Source of the DNA: Candidatus Nanohaloarchaea archaeon | Lineage (GTDB): Archaea; Nanohalarchaeota; Nanosalinia; Nanosalinales; Nanosalinaceae | Direction: 5' to 3' | Length of the DNA: 38,061 nt | Assembly: GCA_046497485.1 (NCBI GenBank) | Contig: JAWOFP010000056.1 | Coordinates: forward strand, 1-38,061 | Part shown: positions 1 through 38,057 of the stretch, piece after piece | Layout of the letters: the number at the start of each line of letters is the position of its first letter | Position numbering within the stretch: position 1 is the first letter of the stretch | Translations under genes and position numbers: made by a program | Notes under the pieces: generated by a model | Seen by the model: only the letters and a program-made list of their open reading frames with translations | Databases searched by the model: none | Told to the model about the DNA's origin: nothing

Positions 1-648
1 GTTTTCGCAGTAGGCCGCTCACAGGAGGTTCTTGCTTTGCTCGCTGATGAGATGGATCGAAGCTACTTTGATTACAATGTCTATGTCGATGGAATGATCA
101 ATGACGCCAACGCACTGCATACAGCTTACCCAGAGTTTTTATCAAAGAAGATCCAGAACAAAGTAAACCGGAAGAACTCGCCTTTCCTCAAAGAGAATAT
201 CAAAGCAATTGGCAGCTACAATGAGAGGCAAGAAGTCTACGATGACGATGCATGCATCATTTTAACCACTTCAGGATCAATTACAGGAGGCCCAATTATG
301 TCATACTTGAAAAGAGAGGCCTCAGAACCTGACAACACCTTGATCTTTGTTGGTTACCAGTTCGAAGGCTCACTAGGTAGAGAAATTCAGAATGGAGCGG
401 ACGAAGTTGAGATAGATGGAGACAAAGTTGAGATCAATCTTGATACTTTGAGCGTCTCAGGATTCTCAGCTCACAGCGATAGACAGCAGATAATCAACTT
501 CACCAAGAACCTGAGATCCACTCCGAACAAAGTCTTGACAAATCATGGAGAGAAGAAGAACTGCTTCTCACTGGCTTCAGGCCTTCACAAAGCCCTTAGA
601 ATTGATACTTCTGCACCGCAAAACCTAGAGGTCAACAGGTTAAACTAG
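1..648 (+). CDS. fttA: beta-CASP metallo-beta-lactamase ribonuclease, aCPSF1/FttA (5'-truncated by window edge)
   Basis: Frame is open from base 1 (VFAVGRSQE). Motifs FAVGRSQE, VGYQ, SGFSAHSD and NHGE, and a C-terminal APQNLE..RL typical of aCPSF1. The N-terminal KH/MBL part lies outside the window. Confidence 0.85.
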   Translation, partial: VFAVGRSQEVLALLADEMDRSYFDYNVYVDGMINDANALHTAYPEFLSKKIQNKVNRKNSPFLKENIKAIGSYNERQEVYDDDACIILTTSGSITGGPIMSYLKREASEPDNTLIFVGYQFEGSLGREIQNGADEVEIDGDKVEINLDTLSVSGFSAHSDRQQIINFTKNLRSTPNKVLTNHGEKKNCFSLASGLHKALRIDTSAPQNLEVNRLN

Positions 649-675
649 TTAAGATTTACAGGAGAATTTGATAAC

Positions 676-2079
676 ATGGTAATGATAGGCCTGGAAACAC
701 ATGTCCAGTTAGATACTAAATCCAAGCTTTTCTGCGGATGCAGGAACAGTAAAGACGAGGAACCGAACGAAAATGTCTGTGAGACCTGTCTTGGTATGCC
801 AGGCTCAAAGCCTAGAATCAACGGAAAAGTATTGAAACAGGCCTTGAAGACTTCTCTTGCTCTTGAATGTGATGTGAATGAGGATTACTTTTTCTCCCGT
901 AAAACATATTTCTACCCTGACATGTCGAAAAATTATCAGATAACTCAGTTTGAGCTTCCTGTTGGTGAAAAGGGAGAGTTTGAAGTTAAAGTAGAGGATG
1001 ACAAAATTAATGTAGGGATTACTCGGCTACATATTGAGGAAGATCCCGCCAAGCTAGTGCATGAAGGAGGATCTGTCAAAAAATCAGATTATACTAAAGT
1101 AGATTACAATAGAGCAGGCACACCTTTACTTGAAATCGTTACAGACCCTGATTTTGAGACTCCTGAACAAGCTAGAGCTTATCTTCAGCAGTTGAGCCAG
1201 ATGCTTGAATACCTAGGAATCTATGATCCAGAATCAGATTTTGCGATCAAGAGTGACGCCAACATTTCTATTGAAGGCGGAGAGAGAATTGAGGTCAAGA
1301 ACATTACTGGAACTTCAGATATTGAGAAGGCCTTAAACTATGAGATAAGCCGTCAAAAGCAGATGAAGAAAAGGGGTAAAGAAATTACTCAGGAGACCCG
1401 AGGATTCAATCCTGGAATGGGCTCAACTGAGAAGATGAGAGAAAAAGAGACTGAGGAAGACTATGGATATATCTTCGACCCTGATTTAACCAGGCAGAGA
1501 AATAATGATAATAAGATTAAACAGGCCTCAAAAGAGATACCAGAGCTTCCAAAGGAGAAGCTTGAGCGATACATGAGCAAAGGCCTGAAACCGAAGATGG
1601 CGGAAGCCCTTGTCTCAGATCCTGAGATTGCGGATTTATTTGAGATGCTGGAGTCTGATTTCGATTCAGTTATGACTGCTTCTCTCTTAACCGGAGACCT
1701 GAAGAAAGTACTGAACTACCACGAAATCAGGTTCAGTGAGTCAGGCCTCAAAAAGAAATGGTTTAAGCACTTACTAAAATTAGTTGAAGAAGAAAAGATA
1801 AGCGATAGAAACGCTGAGGAGGCATTGCGTGAAGCAGTCGATAACCCTAGACCATTCAAGAAGATTGTTGAGGATGAAGATCTTCTGAAGTCTGGTGAAG
1901 ATGAGACTGCCCAAGTAGTGGAGCAAGTGATTGAAGAGGAAGACGATGCTGTAGAGGACTACCATGACGGCGATGAAGGAGCATTGAACTATCTGGTAGG
2001 CCAAGTTATGTCTACAAGCGGCGGTAAGGCAGATCCTAAAAACGCCCGAGAACTTTTGAAAGAACAGCTTGAAAATTAG
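676..2079 (+). CDS. gatB: Asp-tRNA(Asn)/Glu-tRNA(Gln) amidotransferase subunit B
   Basis: IGLETHVQL, RKTYFYPD, NYQITQ, HIEEDPAK, DYNRAGTPLLEIVT, and a C-terminal YqeY-like tail (LVGQVM...GKADP). Confidence 0.97.
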   Translation: MVMIGLETHVQLDTKSKLFCGCRNSKDEEPNENVCETCLGMPGSKPRINGKVLKQALKTSLALECDVNEDYFFSRKTYFYPDMSKNYQITQFELPVGEKGEFEVKVEDDKINVGITRLHIEEDPAKLVHEGGSVKKSDYTKVDYNRAGTPLLEIVTDPDFETPEQARAYLQQLSQMLEYLGIYDPESDFAIKSDANISIEGGERIEVKNITGTSDIEKALNYEISRQKQMKKRGKEITQETRGFNPGMGSTEKMREKETEEDYGYIFDPDLTRQRNNDNKIKQASKEIPELPKEKLERYMSKGLKPKMAEALVSDPEIADLFEMLESDFDSVMTASLLTGDLKKVLNYHEIRFSESGLKKKWFKHLLKLVEEEKISDRNAEEALREAVDNPRPFKKIVEDEDLLKSGEDETAQVVEQVIEEEDDAVEDYHDGDEGALNYLVGQVMSTSGGKADPKNARELLKEQLEN

Positions 2080-2084
2080 ATAAT

Positions 2085-2420
2085 ATGAAGTTCGAGCCTA
2101 AAGAATCAAACTTAGTAGATAAAAACACCGAAATCACTTCTCTATTCGATAAGGAAGACGCTAATTTTGACGCAGTAATCTCTAAGGTAGATGGTTATCA
2201 TCCTGAAGAAGGAGAAAAGGTAATTAATGAGGAAAGTGAGCGTGCTTACTATGTCTTGGAAGGAGAAGGCACCATATATGTTCGTGACAATGATTTCTCT
2301 GTAAGCTCCGGAGATCTAATATTTATTGAGAAAGGGAAAGGCCATGCACTGGAAGGAGATATCAGAACTTTAGTAATTACTAGTCCTCCTTTCAACCCTG
2401 AAAATGAGAGGATAGAATGA
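2085..2420 (+). CDS. cupin-domain protein
   Basis: YYVLEGEG...GDLIFIEKGKGH cupin motifs; ATGA overlap with the next gene. Confidence 0.8.
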   Translation: MKFEPKESNLVDKNTEITSLFDKEDANFDAVISKVDGYHPEEGEKVINEESERAYYVLEGEGTIYVRDNDFSVSSGDLIFIEKGKGHALEGDIRTLVITSPPFNPENERIE

Positions 2421-3328
2421 AAGCACACAATTTTTTGGAGGGAAATGGCCTTGATTTTGAGGTAGTTGAACAGGATAATCCGACTAAGGACTGTGATGAC
2501 GCAGCTCAGGAACGAGGAGTAGAAACTTCTCAGATTGTCAAGAGTTTGATAGTTGAGAGACATAAAGAGAAAGGAGTGAAAAAAGGTGATTTGATTCATG
2601 TCTTACTGCCTGGAGACCGAGAAATTAGCGAGAAAAAGTTTGGGGAACATCATCTAATCTCTCCAGAAAAATCCAAGGAACTTACGGGATTTGAATCAGG
2701 CACGGTACATCCATTCTCCACAGAAATTGAACATGTTATAGATTACAGAGTACTGGAAAACGAGGAAGTATCATTTACAGTCGGAGAACAGCTTAAAGGA
2801 GTAATAATAAACTCAAAAGAATTCAGGAAAGGCCTAGAAAAATCAAATTTTGATTATGAAATCAAGGATATCTCCCTAACTAAACAGGAAGATATTGATC
2901 TTCTTGAATCTGAAAGCCTGGACAAGGAGGATGCAATGTTTGTCGCGGATAAAGGCCTAGCACCACTCTATTTAGAGCTAAATTATGATTCTGAGGATGT
3001 AATTAAGTCTTTTCAGGAGCTTCTACGCCGCGACATAAGACCTGAGAAAGAGATAGTTACTGAAATAATTGAAGCTTCAGAGAACCTGAATCATTTGCAG
3101 AAACTAGTTGAAACTTATGCTGAGACAGGCAAGATTGAAGATTCAGGAAGCTTTGAATTAGAGGAAGTTATAGATGAGATATTGGATGAAAATTCTGAGG
3201 CCTTAGAAGATTTGAAGGAGGGAAAGCAGTCAGTTGAAAACTTTATAATCGGACAGGTTATGCAGAGGACATCTGGTAGAGCCAGGCCTGAAAGAGTTAA
3301 GGAGGTTCTAAATAATGAGTTCAGATGA
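2417..3328 (+). CDS. YbaK/ProX-family aminoacyl-tRNA deacylase domain fused to GatB/YqeY C-terminal tRNA-binding domain
   Basis: N-terminal ~150 aa has QIVKSLIV (conserved Lys) and TGFESGTVHPF. C-terminal NFIIGQVMQRTSGRARP aligns by eye with the GatB tail NYLVGQVMSTSGGKADP. Confidence 0.8.
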   Translation: MKAHNFLEGNGLDFEVVEQDNPTKDCDDAAQERGVETSQIVKSLIVERHKEKGVKKGDLIHVLLPGDREISEKKFGEHHLISPEKSKELTGFESGTVHPFSTEIEHVIDYRVLENEEVSFTVGEQLKGVIINSKEFRKGLEKSNFDYEIKDISLTKQEDIDLLESESLDKEDAMFVADKGLAPLYLELNYDSEDVIKSFQELLRRDIRPEKEIVTEIIEASENLNHLQKLVETYAETGKIEDSGSFELEEVIDEILDENSEALEDLKEGKQSVENFIIGQVMQRTSGRARPERVKEVLNNEFR

Positions 3329-4004
3329 GTTAGTAGATGAAAAAGTTGATGAATTAAAAAATAGAGATAATGTTAGAGCAGTAGCTATTGTGGGTAGTTA
3401 TGCTCGTGAGCCAGACATGAACCACAATGATATAGATATCTATGTGATTGTAGAAGGTGACTGGAGAAGAAGAGAAACTTTTGAAGAAGATGGACAAGTT
3501 TGGGAGATTTTCTATAATTCGATGAACTGGATAAAGTCGTACTTTGATGAAGAGAAATGGTATATGTATCATTGGATTAAAAATAGAGATGTACGCTATG
3601 ATCCTGAAAACCTATTTAATGAGTTAGAAGAGCTTAGTGAAGAGTTTAAACGAGAACAATTTGATATTGATGCCGAAAGAATTAGTTATGCAGTATGGGA
3701 TTTTATTCAAGATATTGAGTCAAAGGATGTGGCACAAAAGAGATTCATGATGTACCATGCATTTGATTATATTTTGAAAAAGCACTATTTAGTCTGTGAA
3801 CAACCACTAGTTAAGGAAAACTATAGACTAGAAAAGCTTAAAGATTTTGACGGGTATATGTACAAGCTTTCTCAAGAATTTCTTAATTCTTCTAGTACAG
3901 TAGAAAAGCGTAGAAAATTAGATGATATAACTAAACACTTCTGTAAGAAACTTGGTAAAGAACCAAATCCTAGATGGAAAACAGATAAAGAAAAATTAAA
4001 TTAG
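3315..4004 (+). CDS. Pol-beta superfamily nucleotidyltransferase with C-terminal helical domain
   Basis: GSYAR...DIDIYV motif; overlaps the upstream gene by 14 nt. Confidence 0.75.
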   Translation: MSSDELVDEKVDELKNRDNVRAVAIVGSYAREPDMNHNDIDIYVIVEGDWRRRETFEEDGQVWEIFYNSMNWIKSYFDEEKWYMYHWIKNRDVRYDPENLFNELEELSEEFKREQFDIDAERISYAVWDFIQDIESKDVAQKRFMMYHAFDYILKKHYLVCEQPLVKENYRLEKLKDFDGYMYKLSQEFLNSSSTVEKRRKLDDITKHFCKKLGKEPNPRWKTDKEKLN

Positions 4005-4213
4005 ACCTGATTCTGTTTCTTCCTGAGAATCTTGAAGCCTATCTCAGTGCCTTGATCATCTGAATGAATCCGCATCGGCACTTCTTTATCTGTTTCATGG
4101 TAGACTTTCCAGTTTTCTCCGTCAAGCGCGATGCTTCCACCTTCTATAGAATCGGCTACATCTCTCAGCAGTTCGGCCGCATCTTTCCTTGTCAGGTTAA
4201 ATTCCTTATCCAT
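4001..4213 (-). CDS. small amphi-Trp-like domain protein
   Basis: LTRKDAAELLRDVADSIEGG resembles the amphi-Trp family N-terminus; abuts the stop codon of the AAA gene. Confidence 0.55.
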   Translation of the reverse strand: MDKEFNLTRKDAAELLRDVADSIEGGSIALDGENWKVYHETDKEVPMRIHSDDQGTEIGFKILRKKQNQV

Positions 4214-5392
4214 TTATGCGAACATCTCATCTGGGTGATGGCTTGCCTTGTTGAGGAAGTCCTTCTCTACTCCGAGATTTCCTTCCTTCAGGTCTTTGAC
4301 AGCTTCATTGAAGTCATCCATCGAGACTTTGGCATTTTCTATATCGTCTGATTCTTCAAGTGCATTGACTGCTGCCTGTCTAACAACCTGCTGGATATCT
4401 CTTCCAGTGAACTCATCCTGTAGTTCATCTGCTACTAATTCAAGATTAACATCTTCCTGAAGATCAAGTTTTCTGGTGTGAACCTGGAGAATCTCCATTC
4501 TCGCTTCTTTGTCAGGTACTGGGACTTCAATCGCTGAAGTACGGTTAAGTAGTGCTGGATCCATGATGTCAGGAGTATTCGTTGCGAAAATCGAGATTAC
4601 GCTCTGGTCTCCATCTGAATCTAATCCGTCAAGCTCGGATAGAAGCTGAGACATTGTCCTCTCAACCTCTTCTCCGCCGTGTCTTCTATCATCTAGTCTT
4701 TTCTTAGCTATCGCATCTATCTCGTCAATAAATACGATTGCAGGCCTCTCAGAGGCTCTTGCTTGTTCATAGAGTCTTTTGACTTTCTTGGCTCCTTCTC
4801 CAATGAACTTCTCAACTAGCTGAGGTCCGTTAATCATGAACATATCAGCGTCATATTCATTTGAGAGAGCCTTTACCATATGTGTTTTACCTGTTCCAGG
4901 CCTTCCAATTAGGAGCAGACTTTTGTCCATGTCCATTCCCCATTCTTGGATTTTCTCAAGTTTTTCTCCGTTAAGCTGTGCGCCTACATTAGAGTTAAGT
5001 GATTTAATTACGTGGTCTAGGCCTCCGATATCCTGGAAAGTTACATCTGTTTCTACAGGATTAAATTCGGAGTCTTTGACTTTTTCTACAATATCTGTTA
5101 CTTTGAAACTGTTAGGGTCTAATGCTACTTCTGTTCCGGGTGTGAAGTCTTCTGGTTCGTAGTTTGAAGGTACTTCTACTCCGTAGCGGCCTTTCATGTT
5201 TCCGCTTGCTTCTACCCAGATTCTGTTTCCGTCGTATTCTGAAACTATTACTCCTCTAAGCACCGGAGTCTTCAATTGGGTGCCGTTAGGATTCTGATTT
5301 CCTCCAGTTTTCTTCTGATTAAAGTACTGTGGGAACTGGACTTTCTGTTTTTTACCGTCTTCATTCTTCTCGTTCTCTTCTTTATCTGTCAT
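4214..5392 (-). CDS. PAN-like AAA+ ATPase (divergent proteasome-activating nucleotidase homologue)
   Basis: TFQDIGGL, Walker A GRPGTGKT, pore loop KFIGEG, Walker B VFIDEIDAI, EVERTMSQLLSELDG, OB-like N domain, C-terminal MFA. Start moved to ATG 5392, which is preceded by a GGTGA SD. Confidence 0.8.
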   Translation of the reverse strand: MTDKEENEKNEDGKKQKVQFPQYFNQKKTGGNQNPNGTQLKTPVLRGVIVSEYDGNRIWVEASGNMKGRYGVEVPSNYEPEDFTPGTEVALDPNSFKVTDIVEKVKDSEFNPVETDVTFQDIGGLDHVIKSLNSNVGAQLNGEKLEKIQEWGMDMDKSLLLIGRPGTGKTHMVKALSNEYDADMFMINGPQLVEKFIGEGAKKVKRLYEQARASERPAIVFIDEIDAIAKKRLDDRRHGGEEVERTMSQLLSELDGLDSDGDQSVISIFATNTPDIMDPALLNRTSAIEVPVPDKEARMEILQVHTRKLDLQEDVNLELVADELQDEFTGRDIQQVVRQAAVNALEESDDIENAKVSMDDFNEAVKDLKEGNLGVEKDFLNKASHHPDEMFA

Positions 5393-5473
5393 TTTACTTT
5401 CACCTGAAAGAAAATCCTTCAGCTTTTCCAGCCAACTGCCCGGATTCACTACTTGAAAAACATCTTCTTATCT

Positions 5474-5704
5474 TTATAAATCAAATTCATCCAAAGAATC
5501 CGAAAACCCATCTCTCAAAAAGGCCTTATAACTGAAGGTTTCAGAACCTTTCCCTACATCATATTTTCTGGTATCAGGAAAATCTTCCGGATCTGAAACA
5601 GAATAGACTTTTTCATTTCGATCAATATCCATTTTTGAGGCCTTGTAGATTGTTCCTGCTGCTACTCCTGCTGAAAGATATGATAGAACTTTTCTTCTTT
5701 CCAC
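5474..5704 (-). CDS. small protein with twin-arginine-like signal peptide
   Basis: MERRKVLSYLSAGVAAG; GTG start; acidic C-terminus. Confidence 0.45.
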   Translation of the reverse strand: MERRKVLSYLSAGVAAGTIYKASKMDIDRNEKVYSVSDPEDFPDTRKYDVGKGSETFSYKAFLRDGFSDSLDEFDL

Positions 5705-5757
5705 GGAAAAACTGGTGAGGCCTTTCTGTTATAAAAATCGGTTCAGATTTATAGGAT

Positions 5758-7173
5758 ATGAAGAAGACTAAAATTGTCTCAACTATAGGTCCAGCAACAA
5801 ACTCAAAGAAAAAGATAGATGCTATAATCGACTCTGGCGTCGATGTGATCCGTCAGAACTTCTCTCATGTAGACCACGAGGTTCACGGCGAGATATTTGA
5901 CAGGGTTCGAGAGACCTCAGAGAAGACGGCTATAATGGCTGATACGAAAGGCCCGGAAATCAGGCTCGGAGAAGTAGAAGAGGATACATTTCTAGAACAA
6001 GGCCATCAAATAAAAATCACTACGGAAGAAATTGTGGGAGATTCTGAAAAGATATCAGTGAACTATGAAGGCCTATTAGATAATGTAGAAGCCGGAGACG
6101 AAATCAGGATCGACGATGGGAAGATAGAGTTAGAAGTAGATAATGTACGAGAAGAAATCGAAGCTACTGTGATTTTCGGAGGAGAAATCTCTTCAAGAAA
6201 GGCAGTCAATGTACCTGGGAAAGATATTGGTCTTTCAGCACCGACAGAAAAAGACAGGAAAGATATCGAATTTGCTGCCGAAAAAGGATACGACTTCCTA
6301 TCCTTGAGCTTCGTGAAAGAGGCCTCCGATGTAGAAGAAGTCAGAGAAATTCTAGATAGACACGACTCGGATATGCATATTATTTCAAAGATTGAACATC
6401 GGAAAGCGGTTGAGAACTTTGATGAGATTCTTGAGGCCTCCGATGCCATAATGGTGGCTAGAGGAGATTTAGGTGTCGAAATGCCTCCTGCAAAGCTTCC
6501 AAGACTTCAAAAAGAAATGATCGAGAAATGTAACAACGCTGGTAAGCCAGTTATCACTGCAACTCAAATGCTGGAATCAATGACAGAAAATGCAACAGCT
6601 ACCAGGGCAGAGATCTCAGATGTTGGAAACGCAGTACTGGACGGAACAGATGCAGTCATGCTTTCAGGAGAAACAGCGATCGGAGACTACCCAGTTAAGA
6701 CCGTAGAATTCATGGCGGAAGTCGTCAGAGAAGTCGAACAGTCCATGAACGGAAATATTCATCATACAGTTAAGCAGAGACCTGATAGTACAAGAGAGAT
6801 TATCTGTAAAAATGTATGGCAGGCCTCAAGAGACGGAAATGCAGAGTATATCGTTGCTCATACAACTTCTGGCAGCACCGCAAGAAACATCTCAAAGTAT
6901 AGGCCTAAAACGCCGATAATTGGATTTACAGATACTGAAATCACTGAGCGCCAGCTTCAACTGGTCTGGGGTGTCAGGCCTTACTATCAGGAGACTTATG
7001 ATTCAGTCGATGAGATGATCGAAAGTTCAGCTCAGAGAATGAAATCCCTTAATCTAGCAGAAAATAATGATAAGCTAGTTTTAAGCGCAGGAATTCCAGC
7101 ATCAGTGACGGGCACCACGAACATGATGCAGATCAGAAAAGTAGAGGAAATACTGGATAATACGAGCCCGTAG
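5758..7173 (+). CDS. pyk: pyruvate kinase
   Basis: KTKIVSTIGPA, RQNFSH, DTKGPEIR, IMVARGDLGVE, TATQMLESM, DAVMLSGETA. Confidence 0.98.
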   Translation: MKKTKIVSTIGPATNSKKKIDAIIDSGVDVIRQNFSHVDHEVHGEIFDRVRETSEKTAIMADTKGPEIRLGEVEEDTFLEQGHQIKITTEEIVGDSEKISVNYEGLLDNVEAGDEIRIDDGKIELEVDNVREEIEATVIFGGEISSRKAVNVPGKDIGLSAPTEKDRKDIEFAAEKGYDFLSLSFVKEASDVEEVREILDRHDSDMHIISKIEHRKAVENFDEILEASDAIMVARGDLGVEMPPAKLPRLQKEMIEKCNNAGKPVITATQMLESMTENATATRAEISDVGNAVLDGTDAVMLSGETAIGDYPVKTVEFMAEVVREVEQSMNGNIHHTVKQRPDSTREIICKNVWQASRDGNAEYIVAHTTSGSTARNISKYRPKTPIIGFTDTEITERQLQLVWGVRPYYQETYDSVDEMIESSAQRMKSLNLAENNDKLVLSAGIPASVTGTTNMMQIRKVEEILDNTSP

Positions 7174-7237
7174 GGATTTGAACCCTAGACCTAGCGGTCC
7201 GAAGCCGCTCGCTCTGTCCAGGCTGAGCTACGGGCCC
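7163..7237 (-). tRNA. tRNA-Arg(UCG)
   Basis: Reverse complement GGGCCCGTAGCTCAGCCTGGACAGAGCG AGCGG CT TCG GA CCGCT ...GGTTCAAATCC...CGGGCTCG folds as a cloverleaf; no encoded CCA. Confidence 0.95.
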
Positions 7238-7359
7238 ACAAAAATTACAGGCCTTGGAATTCTTTTATAGATGAAAAGTTTTGCATAATACTAGGCTTCA
7301 ACATAAGCCAAATCTACCTGATATCTTATTTATTCAGATAGATTCAAAGATATCATGAA

Positions 7360-8964: not shown

Positions 8965-9110
8965 TGGACCCTTGGGGATTTGAACCCCAGGCCTCCTGCT
9001 ATTCCGCTATTTTCCGAAAGCAGTTAAACAATGCGAATGCCGCATTTGATGATCGAACTTTCAGAAGTTCGTTGCGAAGCAGGCGTTCTGCCGGACTGAA
9101 CTAAGAGCCC
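8965..9110 (-). tRNA. tRNA-Ala(CGC) with 72-nt intron at 37/38 (intron 9001-9072)
   Basis: Acceptor stem GGGCTCT/AGGGTCC with the G3:U70 Ala determinant; anticodon stem CCTGC/GCAGG, loop TT-CGC-A; BHB central helix TTCG/CGGA; T-loop TTCAAAT. Confidence 0.9.
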
Positions 9111-9146
9111 TAAAATAAAACAAATATTGAAGATTTAAGAGAGGCC

Positions 9147-12406: not shown

Positions 12407-12407
12407 C

Positions 12408-14936: not shown

Positions 14937-14966
14937 TTCCTAGAGGCCTAATCAATTATTACAAAC

Positions 14967-15069
14967 GCGGTGTTGGTCCAGTGGCCCACGACCCCACCTT
15001 GCCAGGCACCATATCTCTGATATGTTGCGTAAAGTGGTGGAGACCGGGGTTCAAATCCCCGACACCGCA
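14967..15069 (+). tRNA. tRNA-Gly(GCC) with 30-nt intron at 37/38 (intron 15005-15034)
   Basis: Acceptor stem GCGGTGT/ACACCGC, anticodon stem CCACC/GGTGG, loop TT-GCC-A; clean BHB (TTGC/GTAA central helix, bulges CAG and AGT, GCA/TGC outer helix). Confidence 0.93.
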
Positions 15070-15071
15070 TT

Positions 15072-15803
15072 TTAATACTTTCTTTTAGGTTTTCTAGGAT
15101 TAATATCTTGGTTAAATCTGTTTACATCATTCCCAGTTATCCTCAGCTTAAACTTTATACTATGATGTTCTTTACCTGGTTTTTCTTCAAATTTATGAGA
15201 TTTTATATCAAGATCATTAAGCACATCATATAAATCATCTCTGAGATATTTACTAGCTGAACTAAATACATATCTTTTGTGTTCAGGACGCCGATAACCA
15301 TCTGTGTCTATTAAACCTCTTGCAAAACCTCTTTTAAAATCCTTTGAACAATTCTTCCCCAATCTAATAGAATATGTCTTATTTTCTGTCCAGTCTAGGC
15401 ATCTATCAAATAAGTTATACAGCGTTTTAGAATTGTATAATAGTTCAACCTTACTTTCCCTATTATCGCAGATAAAAGGAGATTTCCCTAATTTCTCTTT
15501 TAGAAACCTTTCTAATATCTCCCAATATTCTTCCTTATAATTCAAATGAAATTTTATTTTATAATTTCCATTCTTAGTGTAATGATAACTACCGTCACCT
15601 GCAAAAATACCGCACAACTCACCCCTGATCTCTTCGTCTTCAGGTATAACTATTTTATTTTCCTTCTGCTTTTGTCCAACTTCCTTCCTGAAATGATAAT
15701 AAACCGTGGATTTCGGAAGATCCAAAATTTCTTTTATTTGATTTACTGATTCTCCTTCTCTTACAAGCGTTTTTATTTGAGAAATTTCAATCTCTGAAGC
15801 CAT
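15072..15803 (-). CDS. free-standing two-motif LAGLIDADG homing endonuclease with N-terminal HTH
   Basis: LCGIFAGDG and FARGLIDTDG motifs; HTH-like SVNQIKEILDLPKSTVYYH; basic and AT-rich unlike neighbours; ATG 15803 preferred. Confidence 0.85.
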   Translation of the reverse strand: MASEIEISQIKTLVREGESVNQIKEILDLPKSTVYYHFRKEVGQKQKENKIVIPEDEEIRGELCGIFAGDGSYHYTKNGNYKIKFHLNYKEEYWEILERFLKEKLGKSPFICDNRESKVELLYNSKTLYNLFDRCLDWTENKTYSIRLGKNCSKDFKRGFARGLIDTDGYRRPEHKRYVFSSASKYLRDDLYDVLNDLDIKSHKFEEKPGKEHHSIKFKLRITGNDVNRFNQDINPRKPKRKY

Positions 15804-15895
15804 ACATCGTATAATTTTAATTGAAACTTTAAGCTCATTTGGAGAATACCAAAACTCCAACTCTCAAAGTATAAAGTATATTGCCTAAGGAAATA

Positions 15896-16008
15896 GCGGA
15901 CAATGAGAGTGAGGATAGTATACGGCTTGAACGGATAATTTCCAGTGTTTTAATCGTGATATAGCGGTAGCCGATTCAAATCCTGAGTTCAAACCCTGGA
16001 CGCCGCAT
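15896..16008 (+). pseudogene. decayed tRNA-like sequence / degenerate copy of the tRNA-Gly 3' end
   Basis: 15985-16008 GAGTTCAAACCCTGGACGCCGCAT matches 15047-15070 GGGTTCAAATCCCCGACACCGCAT at 19/24. The segment begins GCGG, has a CGGCT/AGCCG stem and a second TTCAAATCC at 15975-15983. Confidence 0.45.
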
Positions 16009-16066
16009 CAATTCAAACATTTGACTCAACCTAAGTTATTAATTTAGATAAAGAGAAAGATTTTCT

Positions 16067-16420
16067 ATGCCCAAGGAAATGATGATTGATAAGAGCGAGG
16101 AAGATGTAGGCCTAGAGAGAAAGATTGCAGGAGCTTTAATCGCGATATGGGGTCTTTTAGGCCTAAGTATTATTTCCTATGAAATCACAGTTCTGCTTAA
16201 TGGTTTTGAAAGCTATACTTTAGCGAGATTTACATTAAATACAGGAATCGTATTCGGAGGCCTTGGCATATTGTTTAACCTTAAAATGGGTTATACCGTG
16301 GCGCTTTTCTTAATCTCTCTGAAGATCGCCATTGACATTGCGTCTTCCAGCTTTATCCAGTTAGCGGTAGATGTAATCTTGTTCTTGGGGATTGTCACAG
16401 CTTATATTTCAAAGGATTAA
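16067..16420 (+). CDS. small integral membrane protein
   Basis: About four hydrophobic segments. Confidence 0.7.
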   Translation: MPKEMMIDKSEEDVGLERKIAGALIAIWGLLGLSIISYEITVLLNGFESYTLARFTLNTGIVFGGLGILFNLKMGYTVALFLISLKIAIDIASSSFIQLAVDVILFLGIVTAYISKD

Positions 16421-24321: not shown

Positions 24322-24393
24322 AGCCACATCCGGGATTTGAACCCGGGGCCTCGTCCTTACCAAGGACGCGCTCTACCGCTGAGCTAATGCGGC
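24322..24393 (-). tRNA. tRNA-Thr(GGU)
   Basis: Reverse complement GCCGCATTAGCTCAGCGGTAGAGCG CGTCC TT GGT AA GGACG AGGCCCCGGGTTCAAATCCCGGATGTGGCT. Confidence 0.96.
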
Positions 24394-24435
24394 GACTATA
24401 GTAAATGAGGTGAGGCCTATTTTCTTAAACCTCTC

Positions 24436-25314
24436 TCATAATGCCGTTAATCCGATTCCTGCTATCAGAATTATTGAACCTGCCAATTTTCTGAGTAGGT
24501 CTCCTTCATCGAACATAAGTACTCCCGCAACGACAGGTATCAGAACCTGGAACTGTTGAACCGTTGTGACCTGTGCGGCTGAGGCCTGTGAAAATGCCTT
24601 GAATATTGCTAGAGTTGCTGTTGCCGCTATTAACCCTGTTAAAATGTAGAGGCCGGTATATTCTCTGAAAGTAGATATTATTTCTTCTTTTGGATTCTGG
24701 AACTTTAGGCGGACGAAAATCATCATTCCCGTCGTAAGTGCTAAATATGTAAAAATTGTATATATTTCAGGCTTTATGATCTGTGTTGCGTATCTATCAG
24801 CGACCGATGTAGCTCCATAAAGCACTGAGCTTAAGACTGCGGCCTGTAAGGCCTTGACATGTAAGCCATCTTCCACTGATTTCAGGTATGAAATATTTTT
24901 TTCTTTCAAAACTATGATTGCTCCGGATGTCGCAAGTAAAATCCCTGCAGCGAGCTGTAGATCGACATTTTCTCCGAGAACTAATGCTGCAATTGCTGCA
25001 GCAAAGATAGGTGTTAAACGAGTCATGGGGATTACTCTTGACAGCTGACCTTCTTTCACTGAATAATTGTAGACCGTGAACGCCAATACATTTCCTATCA
25101 TTGAAGCTCCCAATGCAGTCAATGCCAGAGCCGTGAAATTAATCCCTGAATTCAGAAAGTAATACAGAAATACCGGCAAATAAAATATCAGGCCTAGAAA
25201 ACTGTATAAAGCTGTATAAATCTCGGCATAGGTATCCTGCATAATATTCTTTGCAATCACGCTGAGGACTCCGAATCCTGTGGCGGCGTATAAAGTGTAG
25301 AATATCCATTCCAT
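24436..25314 (-). CDS. DMT/EamA family transporter
   Basis: About 10 TM segments in two repeats; PIFAAAIAALVLGE and PVVAGVLMFDE. Confidence 0.88.
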   Translation of the reverse strand: MEWIFYTLYAATGFGVLSVIAKNIMQDTYAEIYTALYSFLGLIFYLPVFLYYFLNSGINFTALALTALGASMIGNVLAFTVYNYSVKEGQLSRVIPMTRLTPIFAAAIAALVLGENVDLQLAAGILLATSGAIIVLKEKNISYLKSVEDGLHVKALQAAVLSSVLYGATSVADRYATQIIKPEIYTIFTYLALTTGMMIFVRLKFQNPKEEIISTFREYTGLYILTGLIAATATLAIFKAFSQASAAQVTTVQQFQVLIPVVAGVLMFDEGDLLRKLAGSIILIAGIGLTAL

Positions 25315-30328: not shown

Positions 30329-30390
30329 ATCTAGGTTTAGTCCTCTGAATGTTAAAACAGTATTTAAAAATCAATCCGACTTCTCTAGAT

Positions 30391-31590: not shown

Positions 31591-31603
31591 AGTCTCAATT
31601 GAT

Positions 31604-32083: not shown

Positions 32084-32196
32084 AATTATTTATTATCAAT
32101 CTGATGGTTTATATTTAACTATTATCCTCTATTTTGGAACTGATTAATTCCATAATAATTACTCAAAAATAGAAGAAAAAGGTTAGACCGTTAGGC

Positions 32197-35145
32197 CTAA
32201 CATTTGCTCCATCCACATGAAGGGCATTTTTTGCAGCCTTCTTGTAGTTCGAGCATTCCTCCGCAGTCTGGGCATTCTGGATTGTCGCCTCCGCTGATTA
32301 TGGATGCGACATCACCTGTGCTGTCTGCGAATTCTTCTGTCTCGGTTTTGGCTTGGACTTGTCCTTGGTCGAACTCGTCAACTTTTTGCTGGCTTCCTGA
32401 TTCCATTCCGAGGTGTCGCTTCATTGCTTCTGCGACTGCGTCAGGAACTGAGTGGATCTGTTTTCCGCCGTCCCATGAGATCTGAGGGCTTCGGATGTCA
32501 TCTAACTGGTTGATGACGTCTTCTCCTGATGCACCTGATCTTAGGGCGAGTGAGATCGTTCTTCCTAGGCCTTCTGTGAAAGACTGTGTGTAGCCTCCTG
32601 CTTTCCCGATTTGTGCGAATACTTCGAAAGGTCCGTCCTCGTCATCATTGATGGTGACGAAGAGGTCTCCATAGGCTGTCTCGATTTCCTGTGTTGTGCC
32701 TTGGATTACTTTAGGCCTTTCTCTTGCGCCTTCTTTGCTCATGGAGGTTGAAGCTGCCTGTTCTTCTGTATCTGCTTCTATTCCTTCCTGAGTTACTTCT
32801 TGGGAAAGATCTTCTGACTCGGTTTCTGCTTCTACTCCTGAGGCATTTGATCCTTCTTCCTGTAGCTGTAGGCCTGTCTGGCTTACTACTTCCTCGAATT
32901 CGTTGGATTGGACTAATTCTTCTGCACCTCCGAACTCTTCAACTATTTCGGAGAGCATATCGACCTTGTCCATGTCTGTCAACGTGTTTTCTTTGTTGGT
33001 CTGCATGACCTGTGTGTCACGTGTTCCGTCACGGTAGACCGTCATACCTTTGATTCCTTTGTCGTAAGCTCTCATGTAGGCCTCTCTTACGTCTTCCTTA
33101 GTTGCTGAGTTAGGGAAGTTGCATGTCTTTGAGATGCCTGAATGGTTGTAGTACTGGAAAGCCGCCTGGATATCGACGTGCTCCTCAGCGCTTACCTGAT
33201 TAGCTGTGGCGAAGATTTCCTTTACATGAGGCGGTAGAATTTCGTCAGGGATTGATTTGACTCCGTCCCATTCGTTGTTCTCCATCTTCTCCTGTGCAGC
33301 AGCTTTGACTTCTTCTACATCTACATCGTTAGCTTCTAATGCTTTGATGAAGTAGTCGTCGAACTCGACAAGCATGTCTTCTCCCTGAATGTCTTTTGCA
33401 ACATTCTTGAAGTATGCCAGGCTGAAGATTGGCTCGCATCCTCCGGAGGTGTTTCCGATCATACTTGTTGTTCCGGTCGGTGCGATTGTCACAGTATTGT
33501 GGTTTCTCAACTTGAGACCGTCTTCGAAATCTTGTGGGTCTAGGCCTCCTGTGTACTGTTCGAACCATTCTGGGTACTCTGTTGGGTTTGCCCATTTTGA
33601 GTCATCCCATTCACTGAATGCTCCTCTTTCTTCTGCTAGAGAGTGTGATGCTTCGATTGAGTATCTTGTGATCTGTCTCTGGATTTCTTTTGCGGCTGCA
33701 ATCGATTCATCGCTTCCGTAACGAATTCCAAGCTGCATCATCATCTGTGCGTATCCCATTAATCCGAGTCCGACTTTTCTCATCGAACTGACTTTGTCTT
33801 CGATCTTTTCGAGTGGGAAATCGCTCATTGTTACAACGTTGTCGAGGAATCTAAGCCCTGTCTTTGCGACATATTCAAATTCTTCCATATCAACTGCTTC
33901 AGGGACGTAGTCCTGCATTGCTCTTTCAAGGCCGTCCTGAGTATCTAAATCATAGGCTGAGCCTTTCTTCTCCTTCCATTCATCGAAAGTTAAAGCGGTT
34001 CCGTCGCCTTGATCATCGACAAGCAATGATAGATTGATGTGTCCTAGATTACAGGCCTCATAGTTTTCAAGAGGCTGTTCACCACAAGGGTTTGTGGCCT
34101 CTACTTTGTGTTCCGGATGTTTTTCGACGTCAAATGAGTGCATGTCATTGGTTTCATCGTACATGTATAGGCCTGGTTCTCCGTTTCTCCATGCGCCGTC
34201 GATAAGTGTTTCCCAGATGAATCGTGCTGGAAGCGTCATTTCTTCTCCTGGCTCTAGATCTATATCGTATTCCTTGACTTCTTCTCCAAATGTTGGTGCG
34301 AAGTCTCTCCAGAAGTTGTCGTTTCTTCCTGAATCAGATCCTGCGGCTTCAGGATACCAGTCTTCGTCCCTGTTGTAGAACTCTGCTGTTTTCTCGTTTA
34401 CAATATGAGGTTCGTCGGTTCTCGGGTTGATTAGTGTGTATTCTTCATCGTTTTTGACTGCTTCCATGAAGTCTTCTGTGAGTCCGACTGAGATGTTGAA
34501 GTTGGATAGGTTTCCTTCCTTTCTCTTTGAGGTTACGAAACGCAGTACGTCAGGGTGGTCGACTCGCATGATCCCCATCTGTGCTCCACGTCTTTTCCCT
34601 CCTTGCTTGATTGTTCCACACATGGTGTCGAATACTTGCTGGAATGTCATAGGTCCGGAAGCGATTCCTCCTGTGGACTTGACTTGATCTCCTTTAGGCC
34701 TCAGTAAATGGAAAGGGTATCCCATTCCTCCTCCGCTCTGGAAGATCTTTGCAGCGTCGTGAACAGTATTGAAAATTGAATCCATGTCGTCCTTAGGATG
34801 CGCTACGAAACATGCGGAAAGCTGCTGTAGTTCTGCTCCAGCGTTCATCAGTGTTGGACTGTTAGGCATGAAGGCCTGGTGTGTCATCAGGTCGAAGAAT
34901 TCTTTCCAGGATTCCTCGTAGTCTGTGTGTTCAAATTCTTTGTCTGGCTGTGCAACGTTTTTTGCTACGCGTTCAAACATTTCTTCTGGAGTTTCAGTTA
35001 CGTCACCGTTCTCGTCTTTGAGAAGGTATCGGGCCGGCAGAATGCGTTCGTACGCATTCTCTGTCAGCCTTTCTTCAACTGTATCTCCTGTTACTCTTTT
35101 TACAGGTAGTTTAAAGTCTGTCTTCGATTCTAATTTATTCGGCAT
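32197..35145 (-). CDS. nrdJ: class II (adenosylcobalamin-dependent) ribonucleotide reductase with C-terminal TSCPD-like and Zn-ribbon domains
   Basis: [53 protein letters not shown], terminal CPDC...CPSC; no intein seen. Confidence 0.96.
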
Positions 35146-35170
35146 TGTGTCACCTTAATATAGGATTGAG

Positions 35171-35608
35171 TTATTCTTTTAGCGACTCTACTTCCTTCTG
35201 GAACGATTCCAGGTCTTCAAATGAGTCATAGACTGATGCAAATCTGATATAGGCCACTTCGTTTCTCTTTTTGAGTTCTTCCTTGATTATTTGGCCTATT
35301 TCTTTGGAGGGTACTTTTTTCCTGTTTTTAACCTCCGATTTCACTTTTTCAATAATCTCGTCTATCTGGTCTTCTTCTACAGATGTATTTTTGACCGCCT
35401 TTTCGAGGCCTGCTCTTATTTTATCTTCACTGAACTGTTCGATTTCCCCATCGCTTTTCTCGACTTTCAGATTCAGTGATTCGACTTCCTCGTAAGTTGT
35501 AAATCTTTCCTCACATTCCTTGCATTCTCTTCGTCTTCTGACACGGTGTTCGCTTTCACGAGTGTCCACTACTTTCGTGTCTCCTTCTTCACAGTAGATG
35601 CATTTCAC
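35171..35608 (-). CDS. nrdR: transcriptional repressor NrdR
   Basis: CIYC...VVDTR...RRRRECKEC..RFTTYE zinc ribbon, ATP-cone, VAYIRFASVY. Confidence 0.96.
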   Translation of the reverse strand: MKCIYCEEGDTKVVDTRESEHRVRRRRECKECEERFTTYEEVESLNLKVEKSDGEIEQFSEDKIRAGLEKAVKNTSVEEDQIDEIIEKVKSEVKNRKKVPSKEIGQIIKEELKKRNEVAYIRFASVYDSFEDLESFQKEVESLKE

Positions 35609-35637
35609 TATAGTTACCTCTAACCGATTTAATTGAT

Positions 35638-35706
35638 GTACTACATATAGGTAGAATTCTCTACCCTCCCCACTACATATCGTAGTTCCTTACCTAGATG
35701 TTGTGG
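35638..35706. promoter_or_regulatory. three NrdR boxes: 35638-35653 GTACTACATATAGGTA, 35670-35685 CCACTACATATCGTAG, 35691-35706 TACCTAGATGTTGTGG
   Basis: Match to the bacterial NrdR-box consensus (acaCwAtATaTwGtgt), spaced 32 and 21 bp, just downstream of a minus-strand TATAAAAG (35714-35721). Confidence 0.8.
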
Positions 35707-35808
35707 GTTACTCCTTTTATACTCTTTCATGTTCAGGCCTAACGAATATTCATCAGAAGGTAGCGAAAGCTGTAACAGATTATAACCTTTAGGTTAGACT
35801 AAATTAAC

Positions 35809-36225
35809 ATGGCACATCACTACGCTGGTGGGACCCCCGAAGAACATGAACTAAACAAACAGGAAAGAATGAATTACGTTGTAGAAACTATAGGAGATGA
35901 AGAATCTGGCGAAATAAACTTTGAAGGCGTTAGAGAAGCACTAACACAAGATATTCGTCAAGATACCATAGCAAGAATTGAAGGAATGGAACTAGCTAAA
36001 AAAGATGATAACTACTTCCACGTGCTTGAAACGGTAGCACACAGCGACACACAGTATACTGAAGAGATGGCGAAAGAGTCAAACCTATCTAGAGGAGAAT
36101 TTTTTGCAACACTCGGCCAAATGGCGGAAGAGGGTTATCTTGTACAAAACGGTTCAACAGAATTAACTGATCAAGGAGAAAGCGCACTAATAGGGACATA
36201 CATCCTGATGGACGAACACGAGTAA
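35809..36225 (+). CDS. hypothetical protein, possible C-terminal winged-helix
   Basis: TEEMAKESNLSRGEFFATLGQMAEEGYL...ELTDQG wHTH-like pattern. Confidence 0.65.
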   Translation: MAHHYAGGTPEEHELNKQERMNYVVETIGDEESGEINFEGVREALTQDIRQDTIARIEGMELAKKDDNYFHVLETVAHSDTQYTEEMAKESNLSRGEFFATLGQMAEEGYLVQNGSTELTDQGESALIGTYILMDEHE

Positions 36226-36269
36226 CCTATCTTTTGAAAACATTAGACCCCAATGAAGTTAATATAAAG

Positions 36270-38057
36270 ATGAAAATAGTACCTGATACCTCCGCAATTA
36301 TAGACGGAAGACTGATGGAAGAGATAGATGAAGGCCTAGAAGCAGAGATAATTATACCAGAGTTTGTGGTCGATGAAGTAGAGAACCAGGCTAACAAAGG
36401 CCTGGAAATCGGGTTCACAGGAATAGAAGAAATTAGGAGATTGACAGAAAAGGCATCGGCGAGCGAGGGAATTTCTGTAGAGTTCACAGGTAGAAAGCCT
36501 AGTATGGAGGAAATTAACTTGGCATCCTCCGGTAGGATTGATGCATTAATTCGAGATGTCGCCGAAGAAATTGATGCGATTCTTTATACTGCTGATATTG
36601 TCCAGTCGAAGATCGCTGAAGCTAAAGGTATAGATGTCGTACTTATTGAAAAAGAAGATGCTCCAGAAGAACTTGATATTGAGAAATACTTTGATGATGA
36701 GACTATGAGCATCCATTTGACTCAGAATGCTAGGCCTAAAGCCAAGCGTGGAATGCCTGGTAACTTCAAGTTAGAGAAGATCGGCGAAGAGGTAATGGAG
36801 AAAGAAGAACTAGAGGAATTAATTCATAATATAATGGATGTGGCCGAGAACAGTGAGAAAGGCCTCATCGAGATGGAAGGTAACGGCGCGACAGTTGTCC
36901 AGTACGGGCGTTACAGAATTGCTATGACTCGACCGCCTTTCTCATCTGCAGCAGAGATAACAGCTGTCAGGCCTGTTGCAAAAGTAGGATTAGAAGATTA
37001 TGGGCTATCTGAAAAACTGATTCAAAGGTTAGATCAAAAGGCTGAAGGAATTCTCGTTGCGGGAGCGCCAGGACACGGTAAATCGACTTTCGCCCAGGCT
37101 CTTGCAGAACATTACGAAGATCAGGATCAAGTTGTCAAGACGATGGAGAAACCCAGGGATCTTGATGTAAGTTCTGATATCACTCAGTATACTGCTTTAG
37201 ATGAATCGATGGAAAATACTGGTGACTTTCTATTATTAGTGAGGCCTGACTTCACTGTATTTGATGAAGTTAGAAGGACCTCGGACTTCGAAGTCTTCAG
37301 CGATATGAGGATGGCAGGAGTTGGAATGATCGGAATTGTCCACGCATCCGAAGCAGTAGATGCAGTTCAAAGATTGATTGGAAGAGTTGAGCTTGGAATG
37401 ATTCCACAGGTCTGTGACACTGTAATATTTATCGAAGATGCAGAAGTAGCGGAAGTCTACGAGCTTGAAATGGTTGTAAAAGTTCCAGAAGGAATGACGG
37501 AAGAAGACTTGGCAAGGCCGGTTATCCAGATTAGGACATTTGAGGACTCTAGGCCTGTTTATGAAGTCTATACTTATGGTGAGGAAACCGTTGTTATTCC
37601 TGTGGATGATCGGGAAGAATCCGGAGCTGAAAAACTTGCAAAGGAACAAATCGAACACTTTCTAAGAGGCATAGTAGACAATCCAGAAATTGAGTTCATC
37701 TCAGATAACCACATTAAAATGTTTGTAGAGGAAGATGAGATTTCCCAGGTTATAGGTAAAGGTGGAGAAAATATAGACAAACTTGAAAAGGATTTAGGCC
37801 TGAACATAACAGTTGAGCCTAAGTCTCAGACCTTGAAGTCCGAAGTTGACTTTGATGTCCGTGAATCTGGTAACTCAGTCGTAGTAGATGTGGCAGAGTC
37901 CTTATCTGGTAAAGAAGTAGATGTCTATGATGGAGATGAGTTCCTATTTACGGCTACAGTAGGGAAGTCTGGAGAAGTTTCACTGACTAAAAGCAGTGAG
38001 TTATCAGGAAGAATTTTGAGCGCTTATCAAAGAGATAACCTCAAAGTCAGGTCCTGA
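36270..38057 (+). CDS. pina: PIN-domain ATPase PINA (PIN + P-loop ATPase + KH)
   Basis: MKIVPDTS PIN start, Walker A GAPGHGKST, FDEVR, GRVELGMIPQV, KH motif IGKGG; ATG 36270. Confidence 0.92.
   Translation: MKIVPDTSAIIDGRLMEEIDEGLEAEIIIPEFVVDEVENQANKGLEIGFTGIEEIRRLTEKASASEGISVEFTGRKPSMEEINLASSGRIDALIRDVAEEIDAILYTADIVQSKIAEAKGIDVVLIEKEDAPEELDIEKYFDDETMSIHLTQNARPKAKRGMPGNFKLEKIGEEVMEKEELEELIHNIMDVAENSEKGLIEMEGNGATVVQYGRYRIAMTRPPFSSAAEITAVRPVAKVGLEDYGLSEKLIQRLDQKAEGILVAGAPGHGKSTFAQALAEHYEDQDQVVKTMEKPRDLDVSSDITQYTALDESMENTGDFLLLVRPDFTVFDEVRRTSDFEVFSDMRMAGVGMIGIVHASEAVDAVQRLIGRVELGMIPQVCDTVIFIEDAEVAEVYELEMVVKVPEGMTEEDLARPVIQIRTFEDSRPVYEVYTYGEETVVIPVDDREESGAEKLAKEQIEHFLRGIVDNPEIEFISDNHIKMFVEEDEISQVIGKGGENIDKLEKDLGLNITVEPKSQTLKSEVDFDVRESGNSVVVDVAESLSGKEVDVYDGDEFLFTATVGKSGEVSLTKSSELSGRILSAYQRDNLKVRS

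Follow-up and report, generated by a model that had tools for sequence, protein, structure and literature searches.

Which force could keep a six-letter palindrome at several copies per kilobase throughout an archaeal genome? The question is raised by a 38,061-nucleotide stretch of DNA (hereafter the window; contig JAWOFP010000056.1 of assembly GCA_046497485.1) from a Candidatus Nanohaloarchaea archaeon, in which the hexamer AGGCCT forms an array of 143 sites, counted as exact matches, that extends over positions 317..37801 (i.e. first site at 317, last site at 37796-37801; 3.76 per kb). An initial annotation of the window, which had put the number of sites at about 143, likened the array to HIP1 (GCGATCGC), the highly iterated palindrome (HIP) of cyanobacteria (Xu et al. 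2018, PMC5861425; Elhai 2015, PMC4390886), and offered as possible causes a methylase acting with biased repair, a nucleoid-protein site or an uptake or self-recognition tag. These proposals were examined in the genome of the window (G000, of which the window is contig C17) and in the other genomes of the phylum (G001-G069).

Genome-wide excess of AGGCCT

A zero-order model predicted 5.7 copies of AGGCCT in the window, and 100 dinucleotide-preserving shuffles of its sequence gave a mean of 8.31 and a maximum of 16 copies, with 0/100 reaching 143. The tetramer GGCC was present 192 times (64 expected). As only 49 of these copies lay outside AGGCCT, close to the 50 or so that had been annotated, the excess belongs to the hexamer. 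On the scale of the G000 assembly (967,558 bp in 66 contigs, 41.5% G+C), 3249 copies were found as compared to 154 expected at zero order, an approximately 21-fold excess that made AGGCCT the top-ranked of the 4096 hexamers in abundance; the next palindrome reached only 2.15-fold. Sites were present on 66/66 contigs at densities of 1.8-5.8 per kb, and the single-contig relatives G005, G010, G047 and G048 were likewise enriched. The description of AGGCCT as a HIP1-like iterated palindrome is thereby upheld for the whole genome and is not peculiar to one contig.

Specificity for the complete hexamer was evident from related words. The remaining 15 NGGCCN contexts had 18-173 copies each in G000, and the one-mismatch variants of AGGCCT exhibited ratios of observed to expected counts (O/E) of 0.8-2.4 under a masked Markov model, none of them being depleted. 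The flanks of the sites deviated from background by at most 1.4-fold, stop-codon effects aside, with a weak symmetric preference of ~1.3-fold for T at -4/-3 and A at +3/+4 in both G000 and G010.

Independence from coding constraints

The density of AGGCCT in G000 was the same in coding and non-coding DNA (3.35 and 3.43 per kb, respectively), genes being defined for all word counts as simple calls of open reading frames (ORFs) of at least 100 aa (977 ORFs, 88.5% of the genome). All three frames were used, as had been noted for the window, with 523 sites genome-wide read as AGG-CCT, 961 as xAG-GCC-Txx and 1382 as xxA-GGC-CTx. Within the window, the seven intergenic examples given in the initial annotation (i.e. 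5718, 7249, 14276, 14944, 18531, 24413 and 35735) do lie between ORFs or tRNAs; its total of about 14 intergenic sites needs to be raised, as 20 sites were not fully inside a called gene. Synonymous-codon shuffles (n=20) of coding DNA yielded 394 ± 22 copies as compared to 2868 observed, and codon-order shuffles yielded 187. Given these numbers and the equal density in non-coding DNA, amino-acid and codon bias are insufficient to account for the array, in agreement with the argument originally made from the window.

The same counts bear on whether the excess could be spurious, arising from assembly or binning, or a mere consequence of composition or codon-pair usage. A maximal-order Markov model returned a ratio of only 1.09 for AGGCCT in G000, which at face value favours such an origin; this ratio is, however, circular because the 5-mers AGGCC and GGCCT are almost wholly made of the hexamer. 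With the word masked, Markov models of orders 0-3 predicted 146-210 copies in G000, and the enrichment survived both these and the codon-shuffled null models. Considered alongside the presence of sites on every contig and the enrichment of single-contig relatives, these results make an artefact barely conceivable. In a comparison with contigs of public sequencing runs, 0 of the 40 differences shown (of 3679) fell inside AGGCCT, and with an expectation of ~0.9 this comparison had no power.

Within genes, AGGCCT filled most of the places open to it. Permissive contexts (i.e. places whose encoded amino acids allow AGGCCT by synonymous change) were occupied at 2856/4275 positions in G000 (66.8%) and at 3786/5130 in the enriched relative G010 (73.8%), as compared to 169/2597 (6.5%) in the non-enriched relative G018. 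Contexts of this kind (Arg-Pro, Gly-Leu and (K/Q/E)-Ala-x) were themselves 1.6-2.0 times as numerous in enriched genomes as in G018, indicating that proteins have been altered too. For structural RNA, the 23S rRNA contained four sites in G010 versus one in G018.

The base-level preference was examined at synonymous site positions by comparison of G000 with G018. For xxA-GGN-CTx, the third base in G000 was C in 1376 cases, T in 142, A in 87 and G in 55, as compared to 80, 174, 183 and 86, respectively, in G018. Each alternative base, and not T alone, was disfavoured at such positions, and this is explained only by recognition of the whole AGGCCT. As the alternatives are all disfavoured while one-mismatch words stay at ordinary frequency, the target of the force is the hexamer as a whole, not C/T transitions. 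A pattern of this kind might also arise from biased gene conversion, whereby a methylation-independent, site-specific repair nuclease (a nicking or mismatch enzyme that recognises AGGCCT) would steer the repair of heteroduplexes between site and near-site alleles toward the perfect palindrome. Such a process would drive all six positions and all alternative bases toward AGGCCT and would override weak amino-acid constraints, as was observed; no enzyme class is known to convert all mismatch types toward a site.

Even spacing and short-range interference

Gaps between AGGCCT sites in G000 (n=3183) had a mean of 291 bp and a coefficient of variation of 0.90. Close pairs were scarce, with 197 gaps of <50 bp as compared to ~500 expected (0.06-0.65 times expectation by class). 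Gaps of 100-400 bp were 1.2-1.4 times as frequent as expected and those of 700-1500 bp only 0.66-0.78 times, such that the sites of G000 are evenly spaced by the standard applied to uptake signals. Occupancy of permissive contexts depended on the distance to the nearest site, declining from a plateau of 0.70-0.78 at 75-300 bp to 0.61 at 50-75 bp, 0.57 at 30-50 bp, 0.51 at 20-30 bp, 0.29 at 10-20 bp and 0.11 at <10 bp, and the curve obtained for G010 had the same shape. This drop near existing sites is not expected from independent writing of each site, and regional heterogeneity would act in the reverse direction. Biased gene conversion is also weakened by this finding, as a per-site bias does not predict lower occupancy beside an existing site.

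Patchy distribution among relatives

Enrichment was measured in the 70 phylum genomes as the ratio of AGGCCT to its reversed control word. Thirteen genomes were enriched with ratios of 4.3-17, the next highest ratio being 1.6. All 13 belonged to one family (13/50 genomes, versus 0/20 in four other families) and were distributed over four genera, namely g1 (high in G000-G003, only 5 times in G004), g7 (3/3), g28 (3/3) and g2 (2/6), with on/off differences inside two genera.

The ribonucleotide reductase (RNR) gene of the window (32197..35145, minus strand, identified with Pfam), which has nine AGGCCT sites, was utilized as a marker for codon-level comparison with relatives. Its orthologues contained 9-12 sites in enriched relatives as compared to 0-4 in non-enriched ones, with synonymous alternatives at the same codons. 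RNR identity to G000 was 80-83% for the enriched genomes G005, G010, G047, G048 and G051 and fell in the same band for the non-enriched genomes G042, G045, G056, G057, G041, G050, G052 and G053. Over 406 orthologue triplets, G000 was 60.3% identical to enriched G010 and 57.5% identical to non-enriched G018. With enriched and non-enriched genomes mixed in one identity band, the trait is patchy within a deep clade.

Several non-enriched relatives (i.e. G034, G056, G042, G024 and G069) had AGGCCT counts well below those of the reversed control, for example 55 versus 362 in G034, 73 versus 491 in G056 and 97 versus 344 in G042. Some lineages may therefore avoid the very word that others accumulate.

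Saturation, decay and site-poor DNA

For 1411 G000 sites located in aligned orthologues, the G010 position was occupied in 540 cases, permissive but empty in 97 and made non-permissive by its amino acids in 774. At the 836 contexts permissive in both genomes, co-occupancy was 64.6% as compared to 60.8% expected under independence. As this is barely above independence, the sites shared by G000 and G010, including those in RNR, mostly reflect saturation within each lineage and not inheritance; AGGCCT is maintained by saturation rather than by descent.

A different state was encountered in G004. Of 20 positions occupied in almost every other enriched relative, 3 held the site in G004, 11 held a one-letter variant and 6 a more distant sequence, whilst leave-one-out controls kept the site at 13-16 of 20-28 positions. 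In this small sample (~20 kb), G004 looks like a genome undergoing decay after loss of the force. Decay following a presumed loss also fits biased gene conversion.

Local deficits were found within saturated genomes. The lowest densities in G000 were those of the CRISPR-cas contig C45 (2.18 per kb), whose cluster is a type I-B CRISPR-Cas system, and of the methylase contig C53 (1.83 per kb). In the complete chromosome of G010, where density was otherwise uniform (46-100 sites per 20-kb bin), a metal-acquisition-like island (889770-896544) had 4 sites in 6.8 kb as compared to 20 in 4.6 kb for its equivalent in G000 (C50:10530-15114). The island genes encode PALP-rhodanese, PLP decarboxylase, CbiA-like, CobW-like, SerK/ParB-like and NikR-like proteins and resemble staphyloferrin-type precursor genes (i.e. 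SbnA/SbnH/SbnI-like); the NikR-like protein is 87% identical between the two genomes. Another AGGCCT-poor island of G010 (489427-493636) contains a restriction-methylase gene of type IIG (Eco57I-like) that is interrupted by a stop; its N-terminal nuclease-like domain persists in G000 as a stand-alone 245-aa ORF (C39:6975-7709).

A CRISPR array of 22 repeats adjoins type I-B cas genes in G010 (798759-800182). AGGCCT was present in 2 of its 21 spacers (764 nt in total) as compared to ~0.15 expected by composition, which suggests that the invaders of G010 are also AGGCCT-rich. Four of the 21 spacers were searched in IMG/VR with 0 matches. Another spacer begins with GCCT directly after the terminal AG of the repeat.

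Under an explanation by molecular drive, AGGCCT-bearing fragments would be preferentially imported or recombined between cells or between genome copies and would spread without benefit to the cell. This is the behaviour attributed to the uptake signal sequences (USS) of Pasteurellaceae and the DNA uptake sequences (DUS) of Neisseriaceae, which occur in thousands of copies, inside genes, at fairly even spacing and in a lineage-specific manner, and are explicable by benefit-free drive. AGGCCT is equally numerous, evenly spaced with few close pairs, tolerated in genes along with the resulting amino-acid changes, equally dense in coding and non-coding DNA and lineage-specific in its on/off distribution; drive has no need of a methyltransferase, and the two G010 spacers hint at AGGCCT-rich sources of incoming DNA. 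USS and DUS are, however, asymmetric words of 9-12 bp, present at ~1 per kb and dependent on competence machinery and a receptor, whereas AGGCCT is a 6-bp palindrome without such a core or a strong flank consensus. Interference was strongest at <50 bp, far below the usual length of an uptake fragment, and the acquired islands were site-poor, indicating that DNA enters without AGGCCT. DprA was detected in 1/50 family genomes, a non-enriched one, and ComEC in 0/50; this weighs little because the ComEC model matches no archaeal control genome, and archaeal uptake systems are themselves poorly known. A link between HIP1 and transformation or gene transfer has recently been drawn in two reports (10.1101/2024.09.10.611283; PMC13756078). 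On balance, molecular drive is considered an unlikely origin of the array.

Search for methyltransferases and other determinants

A methylation-linked origin, as proposed for cyanobacterial HIPs, would have the sites generated and kept by an orphan methyltransferase for (A)GGCC(T) in combination with repair of a methyl-directed or deamination type. It has the closest precedent, in that the alternate HIPs of cyanobacteria are described as going with matching methyltransferases (Elhai 2015, PMC4390886), and AGGCCT-specific restriction-modification systems are reported from bacteria (PMC12128166). G000 encodes an m5C methyltransferase (PF00145), and the AGGCCT deficits of G034, G056 and G042 are those expected from exposure to an AGGCCT restriction system. 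Family searches did not, however, support this origin. G000, where the gene is on the contig of lowest site density, was the only carrier of PF00145 among the seven enriched genomes searched; the family was absent from the other six, including the complete genomes G005 and G010. PF01555 gave no match over the cut-off in any enriched genome, PF02086 matched 0/5 enriched genomes and PF02384 (type I HsdM) was found among enriched genomes only in G005 and G047. PF07669 was represented by a 1239-aa enzyme in G005 and by the broken gene in the site-poor G010 island, with no homologue in G000. The remaining weak methyltransferase matches were to a housekeeping THUMP-type tRNA methylase, which is present in non-enriched G018 too. 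None of these five families tracks AGGCCT enrichment, and with no matching methyltransferase found among them the usual explanation for HIPs would fall away.

Signs of deamination repair were also lacking. There was no specific deficit of the C-to-T products of AGGCCT in G000 (O/E of 1.08-1.59 for AGGTCT/AGACCT and 1.02-1.50 for AGGCTT/AAGCCT), T being the commonest synonymous alternative and the T variants being the least, not the most, depleted of the one-letter changes. No combination of m5C methyltransferase and T:G glycosylase tracked the trait (PF00145 and Nth2 were checked; Vsr, PF03852, was not searched). Very-short-patch repair by Dcm/Vsr at CCWGG, and the GGCC methylase M.MthTI with its T:G glycosylase Mig.Mth, produce small, C-to-T-specific skews. 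Both systems illustrate how repair linked to a short G+C palindrome can shift the frequencies of words, M.MthTI doing so with the same GGCC core, but the excess here is 21-fold and all alternative bases are disfavoured. The proposal of a methylase with biased repair is thus not supported, as the enriched genomes share none of the families searched and the T variants are not depleted, and a methylation-linked origin is deemed rather unlikely.

Other candidate determinants were sought by a contrast of whole genomes (i.e. genes of G000 and G010 minus those of G018), with annotation by Pfam, NCBIfam and PADLOC. This contrast yielded 85 genes, 17 small ORFs and 27 paralogue-masked pairs; 210 G018 ORFs had no counterpart in G000 and G010. 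Ten candidates were compared with the on/off pattern of enrichment. The endonuclease Q (EndoQ)-like family TIGR00375 was missing from G005, an enriched genome, and occurred in many genomes that are not enriched, an OGG/HhH-like protein of 175 aa was found off pattern in G052 and G053, and an IetA-like AAA ATPase had no orthologue in G005, G047 and G051. For the NikR-like ribbon-helix-helix protein, G005 and G051 hold only paralogues of 41-53% identity. The EndoIII-like Nth2 had orthologues of 81-93% identity in non-enriched G042, G056, G039 and G014 and was missing from enriched G048 and G037. A VRR-NUC nuclease, archaeal DnaG, an unknown protein of 303 aa, a basic ORF of 96 aa and an ORF of 124 aa did not follow the pattern either. 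Sequence searches of the PDB with four unknown proteins found nothing, and PADLOC gave only generic matches for 41 candidates.

Two of these families had further features. G000 carries two TIGR00375 paralogues with a PHP domain (C31:2126-3379, L199, and C12:4679-5923, L200) that share 81% identity, and relatives have one copy or none. The nth2 gene of G000 (C12:22941-23720, L237) adjoins two photolyase genes, and its product is 81-93% identical across genera that average ~60% protein identity, which suggests either recent horizontal spread or unusually strong constraint.

The accessory repair nucleases of G000 (i.e. two EndoQ-like genes, VRR-NUC and the extra EndoIII-like gene) had counted in favour of biased gene conversion. 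Each of them failed the on/off comparison, however, and this mechanism is judged quite unlikely.

Comparison with known iterated words

In the published accounts, HIP1 is 15-300 times over-represented at 0.3-2.7 per kb (PMC4390886; PMC5861425) and exhibits a periodicity of 10-90 kb along the chromosome (Xu et al. 2018, PMC5861425). Like HIP1 as portrayed there, AGGCCT is a short palindrome that lies in genes (in all frames) and between them, goes beyond codon and peptide constraint, is non-randomly spaced and is patchy among relatives. It differs in being an archaeal hexamer and not an octamer, in its density of 3.4-4.0 per kb with ~70% of permissive contexts filled, and in that no cognate methyltransferase was found. 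A closer likeness is provided by the alternate HIPs, namely GGCGCC in Calothrix PCC 7103, GCsGC in Cyanothece PCC 7822 and rCCGGy in Oscillatoria PCC 10802 (Elhai 2015, PMC4390886). As described there, these are palindromes of 5-6 bp with a G+C core and a comparable density (500-2500 per Mb) that stand out in single lineages. Matching methyltransferases are discussed for them, whereas none of the five families searched tracks AGGCCT. The descriptive hallmarks of a HIP (i.e. >10-fold over-representation genome-wide, presence in all frames and in non-coding DNA, and active maintenance) are all displayed by AGGCCT, but no cognate orphan methyltransferase for the word or its core was found in the five families searched.

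The target of a type II restriction enzyme is avoided by its host, which is the opposite of the 21-fold excess in G000. Strong avoidance was detected in G000 for other words, namely ACGT-containing hexamers (ACGTTC, ACGTAC, TACGTA and others), CTTAAG and GGTACC (O/E of 0.28-0.43, second-order model). For the ACGT-containing hexamers, such avoidance would be expected if restriction had been directed at ACGT-type sites.

The nanohaloarchaeal methylome papers examined report GDGCHC methylation, and the accessible text of these papers does not mention GGCC or AGGCCT (PMC11001535, PMC10266531). An archaeal restriction-modification survey covers two nanohaloarchaeal genomes and, in its accessible text, describes no persistent system in DPANN archaea (PMC10609329). 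A full-text literature search, which did not extend to paywalled papers or supplements, found no description of AGGCCT enrichment in archaea, nanohaloarchaea or DPANN, in line with what the initial annotation had supposed.

AGGCCT as a putative landmark site

The data require a persistent, lineage-specific force that acts at the DNA level on the whole hexamer, reaches all resident DNA with time, saturates, weakens beside an existing site and can be lost. The reading that we prefer, at a probability of roughly 40%, is that AGGCCT is a landmark which a putative DNA protein with sequence specificity reads and which selection for regional coverage keeps in place. The analysis itself demonstrates the excess, its restriction to the hexamer, its independence from coding, the saturation, the interference at short range, the on/off distribution, the pattern of decay and the naive island. 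The existence of a reader, the action of selection rather than of conversion bias, and the function of the sites are what we infer from these patterns.

The putative reader would be a sequence-specific double-strand-DNA protein, probably dimeric. In its lineage, a persistent directional force would favour the complete hexamer at any place where the DNA can accommodate it and would override codon choice and some amino acids. Benefit would derive from regional coverage at ~1 site per 100-300 bp, such that a second site within ~50-75 bp would add little. The force itself would be weak per-site selection, of the size of codon-usage selection, with a scaled advantage in the order of ~3.5 per site (a rough estimate from the change in occupancy from 6.5% to ~70%, i.e. 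odds of 0.07 to ~2.3). A likely function would be chromosome maintenance, with the sites serving either to organise the nucleoid or to mark DNA as self for a system of repair, recombination or nuclease action. The landmark system as a whole would be dispensable and gained or lost as a unit, with loss leading to site decay, and newly acquired DNA would start free of sites and then be gradually written.

Several points weigh against the landmark reading. No reader protein was found; of the 85 genes, 17 small ORFs and 27 pairs of the contrast, ten candidates were compared with the on/off pattern and none fitted. Pair distances of up to 150 bp had no 10-11 bp phasing and displayed only the 3-bp coding period, and the weak symmetric flank preference may simply stem from coding. 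These data cannot distinguish selection from biased gene conversion, as both lead to the same equilibrium, and under a drive model the interference over 50-100 bp could be produced by short tracts of recombination. G000 itself encodes the PF00145 enzyme, and a methyltransferase from a family without a model, or provided by the host, may be involved. The simplicity of the ORF calls used for word counts is a further weakness.

On the landmark reading, a fuller proposal can be put forward tentatively. AGGCCT would belong to a methylation-independent, genome-saturating landmark system in Archaea with a dispensable, horizontally mobile reader, in which a site about every 300 bp, in genes, between them and even in rRNA, would have come at the price of thousands of rewritten codons and hundreds of rewritten amino acids, and whose repeated gain and loss within genera would account for saturated, decaying and naive genomes.

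Other features of the window

Pfam searches of 37 window ORFs found housekeeping genes and no DNA-modification enzyme, bearing out the earlier statement that no responsible enzyme is encoded there. The 982-aa open frame of the RNR gene is split in G004, G013, G014, G024, G037 and G059 by long in-frame insertions (open frames of 1285-1923 aa); these are probably inteins, and the window copy is without any.

An intron-containing tRNA-Ala(CGC)-like gene was read by eye on the minus strand at 8966..9112 (boundaries approximate), where ARAGORN and Rfam made no call. It has a G3:U70 pair in the acceptor stem, the anticodon loop CTTCGCAA and the T arm TGGGGTTCAAATCCCCA, with an intron of ~70 nt placed after the anticodon loop. 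The AGGCCT at 8989-8994, originally assigned to the variable loop, was indeed found there, at the border with the T-stem. Intergenic sites are exemplified by 5718..5723 (between an ORF end at 5449 and an ORF start at 5758), 7249..7254 (between tRNA-Arg at 7162-7238 and an ORF start at 7360), 24413..24418 (between tRNA-Thr at 24322-24393 and the ORF at 24436-25314) and 35735..35740 (between a NrdR-like ORF at 35171-35608 and an ORF start at 35809).

The longest AGGCCT-free gap of the window measures 1458 bp (3290..4741, between the sites at 3284 and 4742). Another gap of 1158 bp (14950..16107, between the sites at 14944 and 16108) has a GC content of 0.368 and contains a free-standing ORF with a LAGLIDADG_3 domain (15072-15860, minus strand; PF14528, E 8e-14), itself devoid of AGGCCT and located in low-GC DNA, for which tblastn found no homologue in G010 or G018. 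This region is probably a mobile insertion, i.e. recently acquired DNA that has not yet been 'written'. The window is represented in 21 public sequencing runs, with no RNA run listed among them, and these are metagenomes of hypersaline lakes and brines. This origin, the 1-Mb genome and a median protein pI of 4.6 in G000 agree, though only indirectly, with assignment to the nanohaloarchaea.

Implications

Highly iterated palindromes have been without an explanation for three decades and are known essentially from cyanobacteria. AGGCCT adds a case from the other prokaryotic domain, in genomes of 1 Mb that offer a natural series of states, i.e. saturated genomes, a decaying one (G004), non-enriched congeners (4/6 in g2) and a naive island within a saturated genome. 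AGGCCT distorts codon, dipeptide and k-mer statistics, with consequences in these archaea for binning, for recognising horizontal transfer and for modelling how proteins evolve. If the fuller proposal of a mobile landmark system is true, it would represent a new kind of chromosome-wide self-mark and would provide a tractable model for the 30-year-old puzzle of HIP1.

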